Source of the DNA: Vermamoeba vermiformis
Taxonomy: Eukaryota
Assembly (NCBI GenBank): GCA_045837725.1
Contig: JBEWZL010000267.1
Location: 62,001 to 126,000 of the forward strand
Length of the DNA: 64,000 nucleotides
Reading direction: 5' to 3'
Shown: positions 14,301 to 53,600 of the stretch, piece after piece
Layout: the number at the start of each line of letters is the position of its first letter
How positions within the stretch are numbered: the first letter of the stretch is position 1
Made by a program: the position numbers and the translations under genes
Notes under the pieces: model-generated
Seen by the model: only the letters and a program-made list of their open reading frames with translations
The model's database searches: none
What the model was told of the DNA's origin: nothing

Positions 14301-17163
14301 CGGAGAATTACTGATCTCAGTCGTCCCATAGGTCTTGCCCTTAATGAACTCGTAAAGGCTCCTCCCTTCAAGTTCGAGACAGTAGATGATGCCTGCGACA
14401 TCATTGCGGACAATGGCCACATCTTCTCTTCAAAATATGATCTAGTCTCGGCATATCGTCACTTGCCTGTGTGGCCTGATCACTGGGACCTGTGTGGCTT
14501 CATGTGGAATGACGTCTATTATGTGGACTTGCGAGTCTGCTTCGGCTATCGAAAGGCTCCATACGTGTTCTACAAAGTGTCTAATTTCATTAAGCGAATA
14601 GGGCAGAAGTACTACTCCGTGTGCTTAATTGTCCCGTACCTTGATGACTTCCTAGTTCTATCGCCTGGTCCAACAAAAGATCAAGCAAGGCAGAATGCAG
14701 TCCAAGATGCCGCTAATTTCCGGCGCTGTCTTCGAGAGATGGGCTGGGAAATTTCGGAGAAGAAGTGCGTAGAAGTCACACAGCTGGTCGTCTTCCTTGG
14801 CATCCAACTCGACTTGGTGGAGAAGACAGTGGTGTTGCCTGCAGACAAGTTGAAGAAGTTGATGGCTCAGCTCGAGAGCTTCGTGGTGCGAGAGCATGCG
14901 ACAAAGAGAGAGTTGCAGGAGCTGGTCGGTTGTCTCAACTTTGCTTGTTCAGTGATTAGAGGAGGACGTACCTTTTTACGTCGCGCTATTGATCTGATTA
15001 ATTCCGTTAGCGAAGACAGACGTCACATACCCGTGGCACTCAACAACAACTTCAAGATGGACATCAAGTGGTGGCTGAAATTTGCGCGCGACTGGAATGG
15101 CAAGGAGAAGATGCTGGACCCACGACCAATTGATGATCGCCATTTCACCGTGGACGCGTCTGGCACAGCAGTTTGCGCCGTATTCGACAAGCACTTCATT
15201 GTCCGCTATCACGACAGTCTGACGACAGAGTGGCATATTAACGAGAAAGAGTGCCTTGCAGTGTATCTGGCCGCACTGAAGTGGGGTCACCTATGGTCTG
15301 GCAGGAGAGTCGTGGTCAGTTCTGATAACTCTACCACTGTGGCTGCTTTAAACAAAGGATCGTCCAAAGCAGTGCATATAATGAAGATGCTACGCTCGTT
15401 GTTCTGGCTCTCAGCCAAGAACAACTTTCATCTTACTGCGGTTCATTTACCAGGTAATCGCAACATCCTGGCCGACGCTGGCTCTCGCGGTCGCTTCGGT
15501 CCGTTAGACAAAGCAGGCATTACCATGTCTCCGTGCCCAACTCTGGAATGGATAGATCTGTGAACGAGTACCTACAGCTGGCGTACGCACCATCTACAAA
15601 CCGCTCCCGAGAATCAGCAGTGGGTGCCTTCGAACGTTGGTGCCTTTCAACCCAGCGCACTGTGGAGACATCAGAGGATACACTGTGCGAATATATTGCG
15701 TATCTAGCGAATAAGAATGTGAAAGCGAGCTCTATCAAGGCATACGTGAGTTCAATTAATACTCACTTTAAATTGCTCGGGCAGAAGGACTGTCTGGCGG
15801 ACAAATTCAAGATCAAGACCATGATCCGTGGAGTCAAGCGAGCTCAGGCGCACGCACCTAGTGGAAAACACCCGCTCACTCCAGTGGAGCTAAGAAGAAT
15901 TAGGCAGTCGCTGGATTGGACTTCGTCGCGTGATCGTACCTTCTGGGCGTGCTTGGTGATTGGCTTTTGGACCTTCTTGCGAGGCAGTAATTTGGTCCCC
16001 AAGGCAGCGAACAAGTTTGACCCAAATCGTCATCTCTCTCCAGCAAATATGACGATTAAGAGCAACGTCGTATTCGCACTGATGAAAACGAAGACGATCC
16101 AATTTGCGGAGAGACTGCTGGTGCTTCCACTGGTTGCTTTACCGGGTAATGACTTGTGTCCGGTGGCTGCGTTGGTTGCGATGTGGGAGCTGTGCCCACT
16201 ACGCAAAGCTGGTCCGTTGTTTACCTTCAGTGATGGGCGAGGGGCAGTGGTGCCTCTTCTTCACTCGAAGCTGAACGAAAGTATGTGGTGCCAGTCGTGG
16301 GACTGGTCATACTTGGTTGCTTTTAGCTGATTAACTGACTCTTCTAGTGATAAGAGATGCGTGTCGTAAAATTGGCCTGGATCCATCGAACTACTCTGCT
16401 CACTCTTTGCGGAAGGGCGGAGCGACCATCGCCTTACTCTCCGGTGTGGATGTGACAATGGTCAAGGCACAAGGAGACTGGGTCTCAAACGCGTATGAAC
16501 GGTACATCTCATTCTCTATGGTCCAACGAGAGAGCGTTCCACGGAAGATAGCGGAGGCGATGAAGGAGGAGGATTTTGAAGAGCGCTGCACTTCCCTGGC
16601 CTTGGCGACTCAGGCAGCTCTCTATTGATAGTTTGGGGCTCGAACGCTTTCGGTTTGGGAGACTTCGTTGGCATTCGGCCCCAAGCGAGGGGGTATGAGA
16701 GTGCAGAAGTCCCTAACGCCGTGCGCTTCACCCCAGTTGACGAATGTCGAAGTAATCGAGGTTCTGGCAGCAACATTGCCGCAGGAGATTTGCGCGGGAA
16801 CGGAGATATGAAGAAAGTTCGGTTGCCCTGGGAGATTGACACGTGACGAGTTTCCTGGAAGTAATTGTTCGACGGTTGACACGACCAACACCACAGCTGT
16901 ACTATTTGTTATATAGCTCTGGTAATTTTGTTTTTTATTTTTATTTTTCTTTACGTATTACAAATAAAGCGGGAGACTTCGTTGGCATTCGGCCCCAAGC
17001 GAGGGGGTACGAGAGTGCAGAAGTCCCTAACGCCGTGCGCTTCACCCCAGTTGACGAATGTCGAAGTAATCGAGGTTCTAAAAAGATACGTTGATCTTGC
17101 AAGATTCGTACCACTTGTTAAAAGGACGAACAATACGACCCAAAGCACTCGGACTATCACCAT
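8309..17163 (-). CDS. Single-pass receptor tyrosine kinase (copy 2); intron 1 interrupted by the YR retrotransposon
   Basis: Paralog of 1790-5704 (HRDLAARN, near-identical TM). Exon 1 at 17163-17112 (MVIVRVLWVVLFVLLTS, donor G|GTACG) splices in phase 1 to the TAG acceptor at 12144 and continues in frame (DSSCTASQRPPMTRSF). Copy 1 has the same phase-1 first intron. Confidence 0.85.
12181..12351 (+). repeat. Split direct repeat A1 (171 bp)
   Basis: Identical by eye to 16765-16935. Confidence 0.97.
12379..13995 (+). CDS. gag: Gag-like ORF1 with C-terminal CCCH and C2HC zinc fingers
   Basis: First ATG after A1. Q/P/G/Y-rich middle, YEWESVMKLDEEFRR..W segment, CHQWNCGTCSYGPNCKFAH followed by CLWCAENHKAIQC. 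Confidence 0.85.
   Translation: MSRSQICSNHLQSLTSIGDVNTVEPKKIFEVLELVTTWSRLLREAKSDPDELPFLHALAVAVCLADDPSALDRSPVTSKSSLMKFYERVDQEANKDYLPLLKPLADRISELDSQNDDLLNLGEDRPSKVELNLDEFDELTSSADETTRKILQDFLRSPAVQKKKRKRVAPPPAPRQPPPNPASGSSQKNSASSRGAIEIDEEAMTAVRNLLDTAKETQGSAFNANQNPSTQPWQQASQQPYAPSAPPSAPSYYGQGQQGSQGQSMQNGYAGTGYHQPFYSSPIQGGGHTAYALVQNYYSQPYPPLQGANTYQPPVGPSQHQWGFAMPSFAYEKKQSDPSSRAVAAIPNSTLVLGESKAEVQLYLPRHCTDEGLVRGPKSKNEKPKDVTEYLLASQRIAVAMNLESYPVAFQDYSMYLTHMVGLSRVYEWESVMKLDEEFRRRQALGNLRWAPPPYEVASLILTTHTSDQPRALPGRPQDGKKKQGPCHQWNCGTCSYGPNCKFAHVCLWCAENHKAIQCPKANSAQTNSSGASGARSN
13923..15563 (+). CDS. pol: Reverse transcriptase - RNase H (pol)
   Basis: RT motifs YRRITDLS, KYDLVSAYRHLPV, CFG..AP, YLDDFL, FLGI. 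RNase H motifs TVDAS, HINEKE, SDNSTTV, N..ADAGSR of the DIRS/Ngaro type. Confidence 0.95.
   Translation, partial: GNPVPKSELRPDEFFGRVWGSEQLIRARYSSVTMAFSFWSKYLEDDEDKDLLTEVFAPGRGLRLVENDELVLPSELANYSIPDSSVHDLFTADIQAELEKGYIAVATSKPRKVNALGAVDKGDGRYRRITDLSRPIGLALNELVKAPPFKFETVDDACDIIADNGHIFSSKYDLVSAYRHLPVWPDHWDLCGFMWNDVYYVDLRVCFGYRKAPYVFYKVSNFIKRIGQKYYSVCLIVPYLDDFLVLSPGPTKDQARQNAVQDAANFRRCLREMGWEISEKKCVEVTQLVVFLGIQLDLVEKTVVLPADKLKKLMAQLESFVVREHATKRELQELVGCLNFACSVIRGGRTFLRRAIDLINSVSEDRRHIPVALNNNFKMDIKWWLKFARDWNGKEKMLDPRPIDDRHFTVDASGTAVCAVFDKHFIVRYHDSLTTEWHINEKECLAVYLAALKWGHLWSGRRVVVSSDNSTTVAALNKGSSKAVHIMKMLRSLFWLSAKNNFHLTAVHLPGNRNILADAGSRGRFGPLDKAGITMSPCPTLEWIDL
13935..13988 (+). promoter_or_regulatory. 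Predicted -1 programmed ribosomal frameshift signal (slippery heptamer + stem-loop)
   Basis: C CCA AAA in gag frame (13935-13941), 5-nt spacer, then stem CTCCG/CGGAG + CCCAGACG/CGTCTGGG. Pol is in the -1 frame and open from 13923. Confidence 0.7.
15548..16628 (+). CDS. Tyrosine recombinase, two exons (15548-16280 + 16348-16628; 337 aa)
   Basis: Catalytic R (FLRGSNL) is in exon 1. HSLR, GDW and the Tyr motif (AYERY) are in exon 2. Splicing gives ...KLNE-M-IRDACRKIG in frame. Confidence 0.9.
16281..16347 (+). other. Spliceosomal intron inside the YR gene (67 nt)
   Basis: Donor GTATGT, branch-like TTAACTGAC, pyrimidine tract and TTCTAG acceptor. Removal restores the reading frame. Confidence 0.85.
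16657..16765 (+). repeat. Split direct repeat B1 (109 bp)
   Basis: Matches 16971-17079 with one difference (T16696 vs C17010). Confidence 0.97.
16765..16935 (+). repeat. Split direct repeat A2 (171 bp)
   Basis: Identical to A1. It abuts B1, sharing one T. Confidence 0.97.
16971..17079 (+). repeat. Split direct repeat B2 (right terminus)
   Basis: Copy of B1, preceded by a 35-bp T-rich spacer containing AATAAA (16963-16968). Confidence 0.97.
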
Positions 17164-47656: not shown

Positions 47657-50600
47657 TTAGTTGGTAATCTCGCTAGTCTTCTTGATTTTCGCCAAACGTT
47701 CCCGCAGTCCTTGCACGGTAGTGGTAGTTCCCGCGCTCATACTGCTCGTGGATGTGGGCACAGTGACGGCAGGGGTGACGACAGGCGCACTCACAACGGG
47801 TGTTGGTGTCACTGTTGCTGCTGAAGGTGTCACTGTTGGGGCAGCACCGGTAGTCACAGCACGCAATCTGTCGCGCAAACTTTGCACGGTTGCAGAAGGT
47901 ACGCGTGTTGACGTCGACAAAGTGCTTGTAGACGAGACAGCAGGTGTAATGGTGGGTTGGATGACTGTTGGTGTGATGGTCAACGCGCTGGGTTGAGCAT
48001 GCGCGTCAAGACCAACAGGTGTAGCGAAAGAAGGTCCGTTCGCTGCGCTCGGAGCAGTGCTACCAGCGCCAAGTCCCAATCGTCCGCGCAGCTGTCGCAG
48101 TCTGTCCAAAGCAGCAGAAGCAACGTCACTGGGAGCCAAGGCATTGAAAGCAGCGTCGCGGTTCGGATCTTCGTTCTCGTAGCCTTCGCTGCTGTTGCGG
48201 AGATTGGCCAAACCGCGTTCAACGTAATCACGGAACAATCTGTTCATGCGCTTCAACCAGGGCTCAATGTCCAAATCGGGGTTGTCCTTCAAGGCCCAGT
48301 AGAGGTCAACAATGCCTTGCTTGGACGACTCGCTAACTTCGATCTTCTTGAAGATGGCAGACAAGATCATGTTGGTCTGCTCAAAGTCAGCATTGCTCAA
48401 CTTGATCTCGGGAGGAGGCACGACGCGAACGGGTCTAAGACCGGCCATAATGGACTCCTTAGTGTGCATGACAGGAGGCAAGCCACCGTTCGTTTGCTCG
48501 GGATCGGTTAAAGCAGCAGATGCCAAATTAGGCAACTCGAAGAGAGCGTCCGGATGATTAGATTTGAGCATCAACTTGATGTACGCCAAGATGACTGGCG
48601 GAGGATAGATGCCAGTGGGAATCATGCCGAGGTGCTTGGAGATGTTCTCGCCCTTGAGACGAACAATCTCGTTCAACAAGGTCTTGACGGCACTCAAAGG
48701 CAAGTGGTCCTTGTCCTTCCACTTGTGAGGGTCGTGTGTGCTCAAGAACAGGTGAATTTCACGCAACAACGCATCGCAGTTGACTTCGTTGATAGTGGCA
48801 CTGAGCACCTTGGTGATCTTCAACAAGCACTTGACGATCATGTCGGTGACTTTAGGGTACACTGACGAGCCATCGGGATTGCTGTTGGGCAAGGTCTCGA
48901 GAGGAGGAATGCTCTCCTTCAATTGCGAGATCAACACGCTGAAGCAAGCGGTCTTGTCGGTGTTCTCCAAGAGCTTAATGATCAGCAAGTTGAGTGCCTT
49001 CAATATGTTCTTGCCTTCTTCCATCTCGCCGACGCTATCGTCAGACAAGAGCTGCAACAGAGATCGCATCAAGTGACCCAAGACTTGTTGCGAGACAGAG
49101 TGAGCCATTGATTTCTTGGCAAACATGAGCATCAAAGTGTTGATCAAGTACTTGCTCAAGCGAGTCAGTTGTTGCACGTCGGGTTCAGGTTCACTGAACG
49201 AGTCAGACAATTGCTTCGAAATGGCGCCAACAATAGGATCAGCGTAGAAGTTGAGGGCAGCTTCGTCTTCCTTGAGTTGAATGCAGATAGACTTCAACGC
49301 CTCAATAGTTCGATTAGAGTCGTTCGAGCTCATCTCACGGATCCAAGTGCTGGCTTGTTGTGAAAGATTTGAGCCTTTAAAGTCAGACTTCAATTCGGCA
49401 GTGCGTGATTGTTGCTTGCCAGGCAAGAAAGGAGTAGGCTCGGCAAGGTAGCTGGGCAAGGCAGTGGGAGCCAAGCTAGGCAATTGTGGCACGGTGTTGA
49501 CGTCAATCTTCACCGATGACTCGATCTTGTCAATCTCCAATTGGAAGGTAGTTTGAGGCACGCCCAAAACAGGGTCCAAGACTGGTCCTTGCTTCACGGG
49601 TTCCTTCTTGACGGCAGGCTCGGCCTTAACAACTGGCTTCTCAGCTGGTTGAGGCTTGATGACCGGTGCTTTCTTCTCCTCAGGCGCCTTACGTGGCTCT
49701 TCAGCAGGTTTCTCAGCGGGCTTGGGAGCTTCCACTGGCTTAGCCTCAGGCTTAGGAGCTTCTTTCTTGGGCTCTTGAGGACGAGCAATCTTCGTGGCCA
49801 TGTAGTCTTGGGCGATACGGTTAGACGCAACCAACTTCCAAATCTCATCGCCGACAAGAGTGTGGATCTCAGCTAACAGAGTCAAAGCGGCTTCACGAAC
49901 GCGCATGTTGGTGTCATCAACACTATCGTCAGTGCTCTCGGATAAGACACGAGCGATGGCAGGAACAACGACTTCAGGGCTTGAGACTGACATGCCTTGC
50001 GAACGGATCATCGTGTACAATTGAGGCAAGGTCTCGAGTCTAGCTTCGCTGTTCTGAGTGTTGAGAGTCTGCAACAAAAGCGTGAAGAGCTTGCTGGCAG
50101 GGTAGATCTTGTTGAATTGACCAAACACTGATCGCATGGTCTGTCGCGAAGATTCTTCGAGAATGAAACCAATTCTGCTGACGAAGATTGGAACGATGCA
50201 ATTGGCTTCATAGTCATTCAAATGGTATCCGCCAATAAGCAAGGTCGAGATGATCTTCTTAGTCAGCTCCAAGGCCTTGTCCAAGAGGGTTTGATCGGAC
50301 TCGAAGTATCGCAAAGTCAACCAACGGAAGATAATGTCCAAGTTGTCAATGACAGCGTCTTTGTGCTTGACCAAGAATCCGTCCAACTCGGTGATAACGT
50401 CACCGTAAGTGACAAAGTTGAACATCTTCTCGTGGAAGTCGGGCGAGAAAGATTGTGCTGATTGTTCCTTGAGCATGTTCACGTGCTCTTCGGTAGGCTC
50501 TTCGAAGAACCACGAACCAGCTGCCTTAGCACGAGCGTCCTTCTTGCCAGTCTTCAAGATTGGTGGGCCAGCAGGGGCAGCAGGACGAGGTGAAGTTGAC

Positions 50601-53600
50601 CCTGAAGCAGTCGGTGACTTTGAGCCCGCTGAAGGTGTCTTGAGTCCTGACTTAGGCGCGCCAGAAACAGATCCGGATCTAGCAGGCGTCGTGGGAGTCT
50701 CCTTAGCGAGCTTAGGCAACAACGCCTTGACGCTAGTAGCAAAGGCGGGCTTGAGGCCAGAAGTCTCTTGTTCGATAACTTTAGCACCGCATCGCTTCAC
50801 GGTCTCGCCCAAAAGAGTCTCGGAGACTTGACGCACTTCCGCAGCCTTGTCTTGCAAGCAGTTCAAGATGGGCTTGATCAACGGCTTCATGTCGTTTCCT
50901 TTCTTCTTGGATGAAGGCAAATGCTTAGCAATCCAGGTCAAGAGCTCTTTACGGCCGTTTGCAGCAGCCATAGCGTTAGGCAAGTAGACCAAGAACGCGT
51001 CAATGCCGCACACTTCGACCCACTTGTCCAAGCAGCTCGAGACAGCTACACGCACGGGGATCTTGTTGTCAGTGTAGTTGTTGAGAATGCTGCTCATAAT
51101 CAGCTTCATGTTGGGCTCAATGGCGGGACCAATCGCAGTCGCGAGGTCGCCGAGAATGTTCAATGCAGCGACAGTAATGCTCTTGTTGGTATCGACCAAT
51201 CGTTTCTTCAACGAAGTCATGAGGTTGCCCAATTTAGGTTGGATCTTCTTGTTGGCCTCGTTGAGAATTTCTTCGAGCTGAGTCAAACCTTCTTGACGCT
51301 TCTTCCAATCATTATCGTCAATCATAGCGATCAATTGCGGAGTCAATTTGCCGGAAATATCGACACGTGGCAAATCGTCGTTTGCAGCAGCATTGTTGTT
51401 GCTGGATCCGCTTGCGCTAGCAGTAGCCGAAGCAGCAGGAACGACAGCTGAAGCGCGCAACTTCTTTGCAGGCGTCATTGGCTTCAAGTTGGACAACTTT
51501 TCAAACTCTTGCTCGATCGTGACTAACAAGGCAGGCTTGACTTCTTTCAACTGTTCGCGCAATGCAGGGCCCATGTACTTGAACATTTCAGCGAGCAAAA
51601 GCACGGCAGATTGCTTCACGACGGGGTTAGGATTCTCCAAGACTTGTTTGACGCAGTCTACGAGCGGCTTAAGCTCGACAGTGTTGAGGCCAAAGTCGAT
51701 GAGCGCACTAGCCATGAACAACAACGCCTCGCTGATGACTTTGGGGGTCTTGTGGTTGACGCAAATCTTGTAGATTAAGCCAAAAACAGTTTGCGGGCCC
51801 AATACCTCGCAAAATACGGCGAGACATTCAACTCCAGTCTTCTTGATCTTGTTGTCTGTAAGCTTCTCGACAATGCCTTCCATGCCGTAAGCAGCGTGAC
51901 GGCGTGCAAATGCCTTGGACAAAGAAGCAATGCGTTGAACGATTTGAATGACGCGGATCATGATCTGGAAGTTGGTGTCGGAGAAACCAGGACGGTAGTA
52001 GAGCAAGCTCATTAATACTTCAGTATTATCTGTAATAGCATTTTCGTCCATCTTGTTCACCAAATCGCCCAAAGCATTAATGGCTAAAATAAATTGTTAG
52101 ATTCGATCCGTTACAAAACAATAGCTAATTAGTAAAATATGTGTATATTATGTTAGATCATATAGTTGAGTCTTACCTTCTAAACGTTGCTTCCAAACCT
52201 TCTTTTCAGCGAGTTGGTTGATGATATCCATGGAGATCAAAGCGCCAGCCTTCGCAACGACTTCTTCTTGGTTCATTGAAGGTGTAGTCGAGTTATCTTC
52301 GGCTGCTGGCTTGGCAACAGGGGCAGGAGCGGCAACATTAGTATTGCTGGCAATCGTGCCTGGCTTAGGAATGCCCGACTTCTTTGTAGCAGCAGGTGCA
52401 ACAGCAGTGCCTTTAGCTGCTGCTTTAGGTGGTGCAGCAGTAGGTTCTTCTGCGACAGCAGCAGCCTTTGGAGCTGCCTTTTTAGGTGTACCCTTAGCAC
52501 CAGCCCTAAATCAAAAACTTAGGATCTCGATCTCGTTACAAAAAATTTTTGAAGGCGCTGAATTTGCACCGTATTATTTAAGCAAGCATATGTTAATCAT
52601 TTGTATCGTACAACTTACTTAGGAGCGCCCTTCTTTGGAGCAGGAGCATCGTCGTTCAGATCGTCGAGATCGAGTTGAATAGGAGTAGTCATTGGAGGAG
52701 GTGCAGCAGCTACTGCCGTTTGAGGAGGAGGTGTAGCAGGAATAAATTCGCGCAATTTCTTCTCCTTGATCTTATCCAACTTGGCTAAGAAACCTTGTAC
52801 GGCCTTTTCACCGACGAACGAGATCATGGTACCGAATGATTCGTAAGCAGTGTCACGAACTACAGGATCACTATCTTCGAGCAGCTGAAACGATGCATTA
52901 GTATATTAACGCTGAATGATAATTTCAAGCGAGATTTCTATTGGGGCACGGATTCGGATGTGGTTTTAAACTTACGTTCATGTAGATTGTAGCCAAGGGC
53001 TTGACTTGCTTAGTCAATATGGCTCTATTAGTAGCTTTAACGAGCTTAGTCAAGAAGACCAATAATTCTTTCTTTTGCGCGGGTACTTTGCTTTCGGATG
53101 TCGTCTTAATGTCTTCCATAATATCAGCCAAACTGAAGCAATGAGGGATCATATTCTCAAACGACTCTTGGAAGGCTTGGACGGTCGATGCCTTCTTTTC
53201 TTTGAATTTCTCGAAGAAGATCGGCACCAAAACTTTAGCTTGGCCAGCAAAAGCTGCTCGAAGACCCTTGCCTAGCAAACCAAGAGCTTTAGCGCACGAT
53301 TCGACGACTCTGACGTTTGAATCGCTTGTAATTAACTGAAATAACGAGTTAGAATTGAAATCATACTCGAGCAGACAAATCCAGTACAAAACTCGAAAAT
53401 TTGTTGCACTAAGCGCGTAAATACTACCATTCTAATATTAATTCTAAATAGTCGTCTATAGTTACCTTTTTCAAAGCAGCAACGACTTGAGTGAAGTCGC
53501 CGTTCTCGATCTTCGGTGTATCCGCCAAAGTAATCAAGTTATCAATCTGTTCTTTACGCAAGTTCCATTTTTTCTCAGCCAAGCCCTCGTAGAACGCAGG

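Follow-up and report, generated by a model that had tools for sequence, protein, structure and literature searches.

Mobile elements and the intron problem

Retrotransposons are expected to lose introns through their RNA stage, and the presence of introns is used to tell DNA transposons apart from them. How, then, should one read a retrotransposon whose integration enzyme is encoded in two pieces, separated by what looks like a spliceosomal intron? This question is raised by a 64,000-nucleotide stretch of Vermamoeba vermiformis DNA (assembly GCA_045837725.1, contig JBEWZL010000267.1, positions 62,001 to 126,000), here called the window; all coordinates refer to its forward strand unless another sequence is named. 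Positions 12181-17079 form one mobile element of 4.9 kb, a tyrosine recombinase (YR) retrotransposon with split direct repeats and genes for gag, reverse transcriptase (RT)/RNase H and YR. It is classed, on structural criteria only, as a Ngaro-type YR retrotransposon of the order DIRS. We consider it very probable that 67 nucleotides of the YR gene of this recently inserted element are a genuine phase-1 spliceosomal intron; the splicing itself, and the partition of the RNA into spliced and unspliced forms, are deduced from the sequences compared below.

A recombinase gene interrupted in its catalytic domain

The upstream YR frame, taken from stop to stop, spans 15458-16330. It closes with a TGA at 16328-16330, confirming the initial annotation, which had placed a stop ahead of HSLR, GDW and the catalytic tyrosine; relative to it, the downstream frame, at 16335-16628, has a +1 shift. 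The proposed intron starts with GTATGT at 16281 and ends with TTCTAG at 16347, a length of 67 nucleotides. Its excision produces a phase 1 join in which an ATG codon, split after its A, is restored, and the product reads KLNE-M-IRD across the join and runs to 337 amino acids from the ATG at 15548. Removal of the 67 nucleotides does join the two halves in frame, as had been claimed, and the claim that they split the active site also stands: the catalytic Arg and Lys lie in the upstream exon, and His-x-x-Arg, Trp and Tyr in the downstream one.

A frame-restoring GT..AG pair proves little when taken by itself, because 31 such removals are possible within 16150-16470. Among these 31, however, removal of 16281-16347 ranks first by alignment score against seven natural uninterrupted relatives. 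The spliced 337-residue product also aligns gaplessly, across the join, to 13 continuous YRs (P0008, P0013, P0019-P0027, P0029 and P0035), 12 of them aligned by program and P0035 read by eye. The interval 16212-16347 (donor GTCCGT), which was the first automatic pick of our intron heuristic at this junction, was ruled out by the alignment of homologues. Close to the 3' end of the 67 nucleotides, within 5-40 nucleotides of it, are three branch-like YTRAY motifs, CTGAT at 16327, TTAAC at 16331-16335 and CTGAC at 16335-16339.

The interruption is shared by relatives

A search with exon 1 retrieved 29 proteins, 16 of them close (P0003-P0018; 46-78% identity). Fourteen of the 16 lose homology right after LN followed by E, K or G, at the same codon as in the window. 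Ten of the 14 continue into short unrelated tails with no common sequence or length, and the other four (P0009, P0014, P0015 and P0016) have an unrelated in-frame insert of 18 residues, after which homology resumes; this insert would correspond to a 54-nucleotide intron that is open in frame. The residue after the break is S, C or R in all 14, which is compatible with an NGT codon (GT at codon positions 2-3), like the window, where the GT follows an A. Judging from the residues beyond the break, the donors would fit GTATG, GTAC, GTAAG or GTGAG.

DNA evidence comes from two related records of a single lineage, L001 and L002, which were the only ones yielded by a scan of metagenome DNA for relatives; scans of viral and prokaryote-genome sequences for related DNA gave no match. 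L001 and L002 share 99.4% identity, and in YR exon 1 they match the window at 51%. Both contain a 66-nucleotide GTAAGT..GGTTAG intron at the same codon and in the same phase as in the window, with an in-frame TAG inside, and this intron has no sequence likeness to the one in the window. Across these sequences the predicted interruption is conserved in site and phase, while the intron sequence and length are not. The initial annotation had named, as grounds for rejecting the intron, continuous sister copies with the 67 nucleotides private to this one. Continuous relatives do exist, yet the interruption at the same codon in 14 of the 16 close relatives shows that it is not confined to the window.

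The halves might alternatively be joined by translational recoding (a frameshift or bypass) rather than by splicing. The gag, RT and YR genes each lie in the -1 frame of their predecessor, and other parts of the element may thus use recoding. At the interruption, however, the gap measures 67, 66 or 54 nucleotides, with frame relations of +1, 0 and 0 and unrelated sequence; it always starts with GT-compatible codons and ends with AG wherever DNA was seen. It also has no stable structure: the introns of the window and L002, folded with and without 20-nucleotide flanks, gave z-scores of -0.1 to -1.2. We regard recoding as the least credible of the explanations considered here. A donor-sequestering hairpin in the window intron was rejected as a signal since it lacks conservation, and the intron has neither a conserved sequence nor a stable structure that would suggest a packaging signal.

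In the sub-clade of P0009, unspliced RNA would encode a full-length recombinase with the 18-residue insert shortly before HxxR. Its sisters in the same sub-clade, P0011, P0012, P0017 and P0018, break off shortly past the site, either at a stop or where the contig ends.

Exon 2 and the catalytic residues

Exon 2 of the window aligns without gaps to the C-terminus of the continuous P0008 (62% identity) and to exon 2 of L002 (59% identity). When exon 2 was used as query, four separately called open reading frames (ORFs) of 84-93 amino acids were found, 58-88% identical and all with HSLRKGG, GDW and the tyrosine. One of them starts exactly at the split codon, as expected if the gene caller took the acceptor G plus TG as a GTG start. 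Exon 2 is at least as conserved as exon 1. Since an unjoined part would not stay open and conserved in this way, this argues that exon 2 is joined to exon 1.

Exon 1 shows no variation at R144 and K181 among 17 sequences, and all of 15 uninterrupted relatives have R, K, H-x-x-R, W and Y. A profile of these 15 matches Cre (E 1.1e-13) from the N-terminal domain to the first Arg and then through HxxR..W..Y; the exon 1 part is aligned by the profile to Cre residues 40-183, and the exon 2 motifs to HSARVG..GGW..Y of Cre.

The state of exon 2 bears on the possibility that interrupted elements are non-autonomous for integration, with exon 2 left unjoined and the recombinase supplied in trans by continuous relatives. 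Such relatives exist, and DIRS-1 proteins are described in passages of PMC7192593 as able to act in trans, which counts in favor of such a supply. Against it, exon 2 is open, all four catalytic residues are in place, and it is conserved like exon 1 in at least six sequences, while an unused part would decay. Moreover, the contigs of the source DNA run (X2) contain no continuous YR form at a likeness of at least 92%. Supply in trans is therefore, in our assessment, very unlikely.

Host introns and sequence reads

For comparison with the host, intron candidates were collected with a heuristic that takes GT..AG intervals bridging two open frames of at least 50 codons and iterates a site model. 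The 38 higher-scoring candidates, all without RNA validation, are 46-95 nucleotides long (median 60), and 30 of them have a YTRAY motif near the 3' end. Their most frequent donors are GTACGT (9), GTAAGT (7) and GTAAGA (5); GTATGT occurs in two. The initial annotation had called the element's intron host-sized with a host-like donor. Its size indeed falls within the host range, but the donor fits only in part. One host joint of 65 nucleotides was present in 6 RNA reads.

Three RNA runs under the same species label (X7-X9) gave 23, 24 and 43 mapped reads from about 13 million records each. These reads are mostly 90-95% alike and lie on a neighboring host gene, with almost no depth on the element. 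At 9088-9154 and 10734-10852 the RNA reads of X7-X9 have a likeness of 90-95% with many fixed differences, and one joint there skips 65 nucleotides with 4 unmatched letters; the three runs seem to derive from a diverged strain.

The DNA run X2 was more informative about the element. One contig of 4365 nucleotides spans 12322-16686 with 0 differences and with the intron present, and a joint of 16280>16348 is absent from the X2 DNA contigs. Contig depth is 260 over the interior of the element and 186-346 in neighboring host contigs; depth is not a copy number, but the values suggest that the element is single-copy in the X2 genome. The window holds no further copy. In one X2 contig the A repeat is preceded by 29 letters found nowhere in the window, and the depth over A1 is 670, more than twice the internal depth of 260. 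Another A-bearing locus, whether a second copy, a relative or a solo repeat, probably exists elsewhere in the X2 genome.

Several observations weigh against a spliced intron at this site. The 16280^16348 joint occurs in no mapped RNA read, the element being nearly without depth. The host candidates have a GC content of 29.5%, compared with 46% in the element's intron, and GTATGT is a minor donor type in the host (2 of 38). Thirteen of the 14 interrupted relatives are known from protein predictions only, so that their donors, acceptors and intron lengths are deduced from residues, and some of the short tails may be contig ends rather than introns. The window YR pieces score below curated Pfam cutoffs: exon 2 alone reaches 15.6 bits with PF00589, whose gathering score is 27.1, and seven relatives score 18.8-27.6 bits with only P0024 above 27.1. 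Finally, the intron is dispensable for a lineage, given the uninterrupted P0008, P0013 and P0035.

Two proposed fates of one RNA

Inheritance of the intron extends over a clade whose proteins are now about 50% identical, and we infer from this that the template RNA is unspliced while the YR mRNA is spliced. Splicing of 16280 to 16348 would yield the mRNA for a 337-residue, Cre-like recombinase, to which exon 1 would contribute the N-terminal DNA-binding domain with the catalytic Arg and Lys, and exon 2 the His-x-x-Arg, the Trp and the tyrosine nucleophile. The RNA that is reverse transcribed would normally be unspliced, and active recombinase would come only from the share of transcripts that is spliced. 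The initial annotation had proposed both a real intron and two RNA fates. The intron is borne out by the conserved site and phase, the intact exons, the GT..AG ends and the branch-like CTGAC and TTAAC, all of which fit a U2-type spliceosomal intron, while the two fates follow as a matter of logic from clade-wide inheritance.

The clade itself is compact. In an exhaustive profile search, which returned 13,994 proteins at E up to 0.001, just four cluster representatives (P0016, P0006, P0008 and P0035) scored better than 1e-80, and the next one had 2e-49. In a tree of 26 rows, which leaves out the fragments P0028-P0031, the 17 close sequences group together with support of 97/96. The uninterrupted relatives are P0008 and P0013, which are 63% identical to each other and pair with support of 100/99, and the more distant P0035. 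The branching order of the pair relative to the three interrupted sub-clades is not settled by the tree, so the intron was either gained once after P0008 and P0013 split off or lost in that pair. Occasional reverse transcription of spliced RNA would produce such a loss.

Why has the intron been kept? The most likely answer is passive persistence: splicing would be incomplete, full-length RNA would serve as the template, and a lowered output of recombinase would be a side effect. It is also possible, though we think it distinctly less probable, that the intron is kept by selection as a gate on dosage or timing, in line with the proposal of the initial annotation. Limited splicing would hold the recombinase at a low level compared with Gag and RT, and the truncated product of unspliced RNA, made up of the N-terminal domain and half of the catalytic domain, would bind DNA or full-length YR and so modulate integration. 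Consistent with a gate, the intron is retained in three sub-clades at about 50% identity, the N-terminal SAM-like domain lies wholly in exon 1, and in ten of the 14 interrupted relatives, as in the copy described here, the frame closes a few to about 22 codons past the donor, which would make the truncated product the default from unspliced RNA. However, no sequence or length is common to the tails encoded by the intron, four of the 14 have an open, in-frame intron that hence causes no truncation, and the continuous P0008 and P0013, and also the more distant P0035, persist.

The freedom of the sequence to change at a conserved site suits a different explanation, in which the host treats an intron-bearing transcript as that of a normal gene, so that it is better exported or expressed or escapes surveillance; what is kept would be the presence of an intron at this place rather than any signal in its sequence. 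Some eukaryotes do have surveillance of transposon RNA that is intronless or poorly spliced. The persistence of intronless relatives speaks against this explanation, to which we give little credence.

Structure of the element

The features of the element are listed in Table 1. Its repeats are arranged in the order A1, ORFs, B1, A2, 35 nucleotides, B2, and at the B1-A2 junction the sequence is that of the element's two ends joined together. A DNA contig with the joint 12351>16657 has the same 35 letters as the spacer at 16936-16970.

Table 1. Coordinates of the element's repeats, genes and candidate intron in the window
Feature	Position	Strand	Remarks
Split direct repeat A1, left element end	12181..12351	+	171/171 identical to A2 (16765-16935)
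gag-like ORF with C-terminal CCCH zinc finger	12379..13995	+	PF00642 22.9 bits, cutoff 20.5
RT/RNase H ORF	13923..15563	+	-1 frame relative to gag; first ATG 14022
YR exon 1	15548..16280	+	N-terminal SAM-like DNA-binding domain; catalytic Arg (FLRGSNL) and Lys (KTKT)
Candidate phase-1 GT..AG intron, 67 nt	16281..16347	+	Donor GTATGT, acceptor TTCTAG
YR exon 2	16348..16628	+	HSLRKGG (His, Arg), GDW (Trp), RY (tyrosine nucleophile); stop 16626-16628
Split direct repeat B1	16657..16765	+	99.083% identity to B2 over 109 nt
Split direct repeat A2	16765..16935	+	100% identical to A1
Split direct repeat B2, right element end	16971..17079	+	After 35-nt spacer 16936-16970

The gag frame runs from stop to stop over 12256-13995, with its ATG at 12379, and the C-terminal part of gag is 32% identical to L001. 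The RT/RNase H ORF matches RVT_1 (34.4 bits, cutoff 29.6) and RT_RNaseH (28.4 bits, cutoff 24.8), and is 54% identical to L001 over 540 amino acids. No methyltransferase domain was detected between RNase H and YR: just 64 residues follow the RNase H match, with no further Pfam hit, which leaves no room for such a domain. Pfam likewise gave no family match in the element to an integrase, a protease or a GIY-YIG endonuclease. The structural criteria behind the Ngaro-type classification, including the missing methyltransferase that separates it from DIRS1 and PAT, are those set out in sections of PMC13465315 and PMC3266345.

The stop-to-stop frames of the ORFs overlap one another. Counted from start codons, the YR ATG at 15548 overlaps the RT stop at 15563 by 16 nucleotides, and RT, if started at the ATG at 14022, does not overlap gag. 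Ngaro-type ORFs are usually non-overlapping, according to a part of PMC3266345. The arrangement in which gag, RT/RNase H and YR each lie in the -1 frame of the preceding ORF is found both in the window (12256-16330) and in the 50%-diverged L001 (2826-6741); its conservation may point to -1 frameshifting or to reinitiation. Other frame-joining GT..AG intervals inside the element, at 13894-13988 (gag/RT) and 15441-15568 (RT/YR), have poor donors (GTTTGC and GTTCAT) and were dismissed as chance.

By analogy with long terminal repeats (LTRs), the near-identity of the repeats (A 100%, B 99%) suggests a recent insertion. The age of the insertion also bears on whether this is a dead copy, in which the 67 nucleotides would be a private insertion or frameshift scar that is bounded by GT and AG by chance. 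In favor of a dead copy, a frame can be restored at this junction by 31 different removals, so that a single candidate carries little weight, and the element looks single-copy in the source DNA run. Yet the repeats point to a young insertion, all three ORFs and exon 2 are open, and the same codon is interrupted in 14 of the 16 relatives and in the DNA of L001 and L002. We see only a slight chance that the copy is dead, smaller even than that of a recombinase supplied in trans.

Neighboring host genes

Pfam searches of ten host ORFs of the window gave only LRR, kinase and TOG/HEAT domains. Next to the element, at 8798-12153 on the minus strand, is a host gene of receptor-kinase-like type, which encodes a Tyr/Ser-Thr kinase domain and an ectodomain rich in cysteine. 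It includes adjoining stop-to-stop ORFs at 10915-11178, 11179-11778 and 11779-12153 in one frame. The stop at 11179-11181 lies inside a candidate in-frame intron of 51 nucleotides (GTACGT..AAG, 11163-11213), and DNA contigs have 1-nucleotide indel variants at 10272, 10889, 10914, 11166, 11173 and 11183. Farther away, 47657-52096 on the minus strand is an open frame of 1479 codons for a TOG/HEAT (XMAP215/CLASP-like) protein. Its GC content is about 0.51, compared with about 0.39 around it, and it is unusually long and intron-free for an intron-rich region.

Comparison with known systems

There may be earlier mentions of putative introns in certain YR retroelements. The word "intron" is absent from four open surveys of YR retrotransposons (PMC3783388, PMC3266345, PMC6681497 and PMC9210276). 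No description of an intron in a DIRS, Ngaro or PAT element was found in the full-text literature, the coverage of which does not extend to the founding papers of the field, and an earlier report is possible. If the intron is real and undescribed, this would be the first case of a retrotransposon with a conserved coding intron in its integration enzyme. Such an intron would imply that template RNA escapes splicing, and it would serve as an easy natural marker of the RNA that is copied during the replication of DIRS and Ngaro elements, a cycle still poorly understood. There is also a warning for annotation: gene callers that are blind to introns report such recombinases as truncated, and at least ten of the 16 database relatives appear so.

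The element shares with Ngaro/PAT-type YR retrotransposons the order gag-RT/RNase H-YR, the A1..B1A2..B2 repeats and a B1-A2 junction made of the joined ends, and like Ngaro types it is without a methyltransferase domain (following the criteria in sections of PMC13465315 and PMC3266345). It would differ from known Ngaro-type elements in having a spliceosomal intron inside the YR catalytic domain, common to a clade.

Reliance on spliced and unspliced forms of one RNA has parallels elsewhere. In retroviruses, copia and Ogre-type LTR elements a single transcript serves, when unspliced, as the template and, when spliced, as the mRNA for a late protein. There, splicing removes large parts of the RNA to make a subgenomic mRNA, whereas here a host-sized intron of 67 nucleotides would be removed from within the catalytic domain of one enzyme. 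A broader proposition, which we put forward tentatively and hold to be rather less likely than its opposite, is that one spliceosomal intron in the YR catalytic domain has survived many cycles of reverse transcription in a whole clade, that elements of the order DIRS sort their RNA as retroviruses do, and that host splicing sets the amount of integration-competent enzyme.

Introns have been used as an argument that Cryptons, which are YR DNA transposons, move as DNA. Cryptons, including the intron-rich Glomhopper variants, are reported in parts of PMC13465315 to have YR genes with spliceosomal introns. They are without RT/RNase H and split direct repeats; the element described here has both, so the inference from introns to a DNA transposon does not apply to it. 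If its intron is real, the element would run counter to the rule by which a YR element with introns is taken for a DNA transposon. The relation to Cre of phage P1 is a distant one, the element's enzyme being the YR of a eukaryotic retroelement.

Introns are also kept through retrotransposition by Penelope-like elements, which a passage of PMC8557442 calls "highly unusual among retroelements" for this reason. They have a GIY-YIG endonuclease and use target-primed synthesis, and their best-studied intron, according to that paper, lies in the 5' untranslated region, over the promoter. Here, in contrast, the candidate intron lies in the YR coding sequence; instead of a GIY-YIG hit, of which there was none, the element shows a YR and split direct repeats. 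A transposon study in Ectocarpus, in the portion of PMC12477816 that concerns retrotransposons, handles these as coding sequence only. What we rate as new in this intron-retaining retroelement, which from its sequence would need both spliced and unspliced RNA, is that it is a YR element, with the intron inside the catalytic domain.

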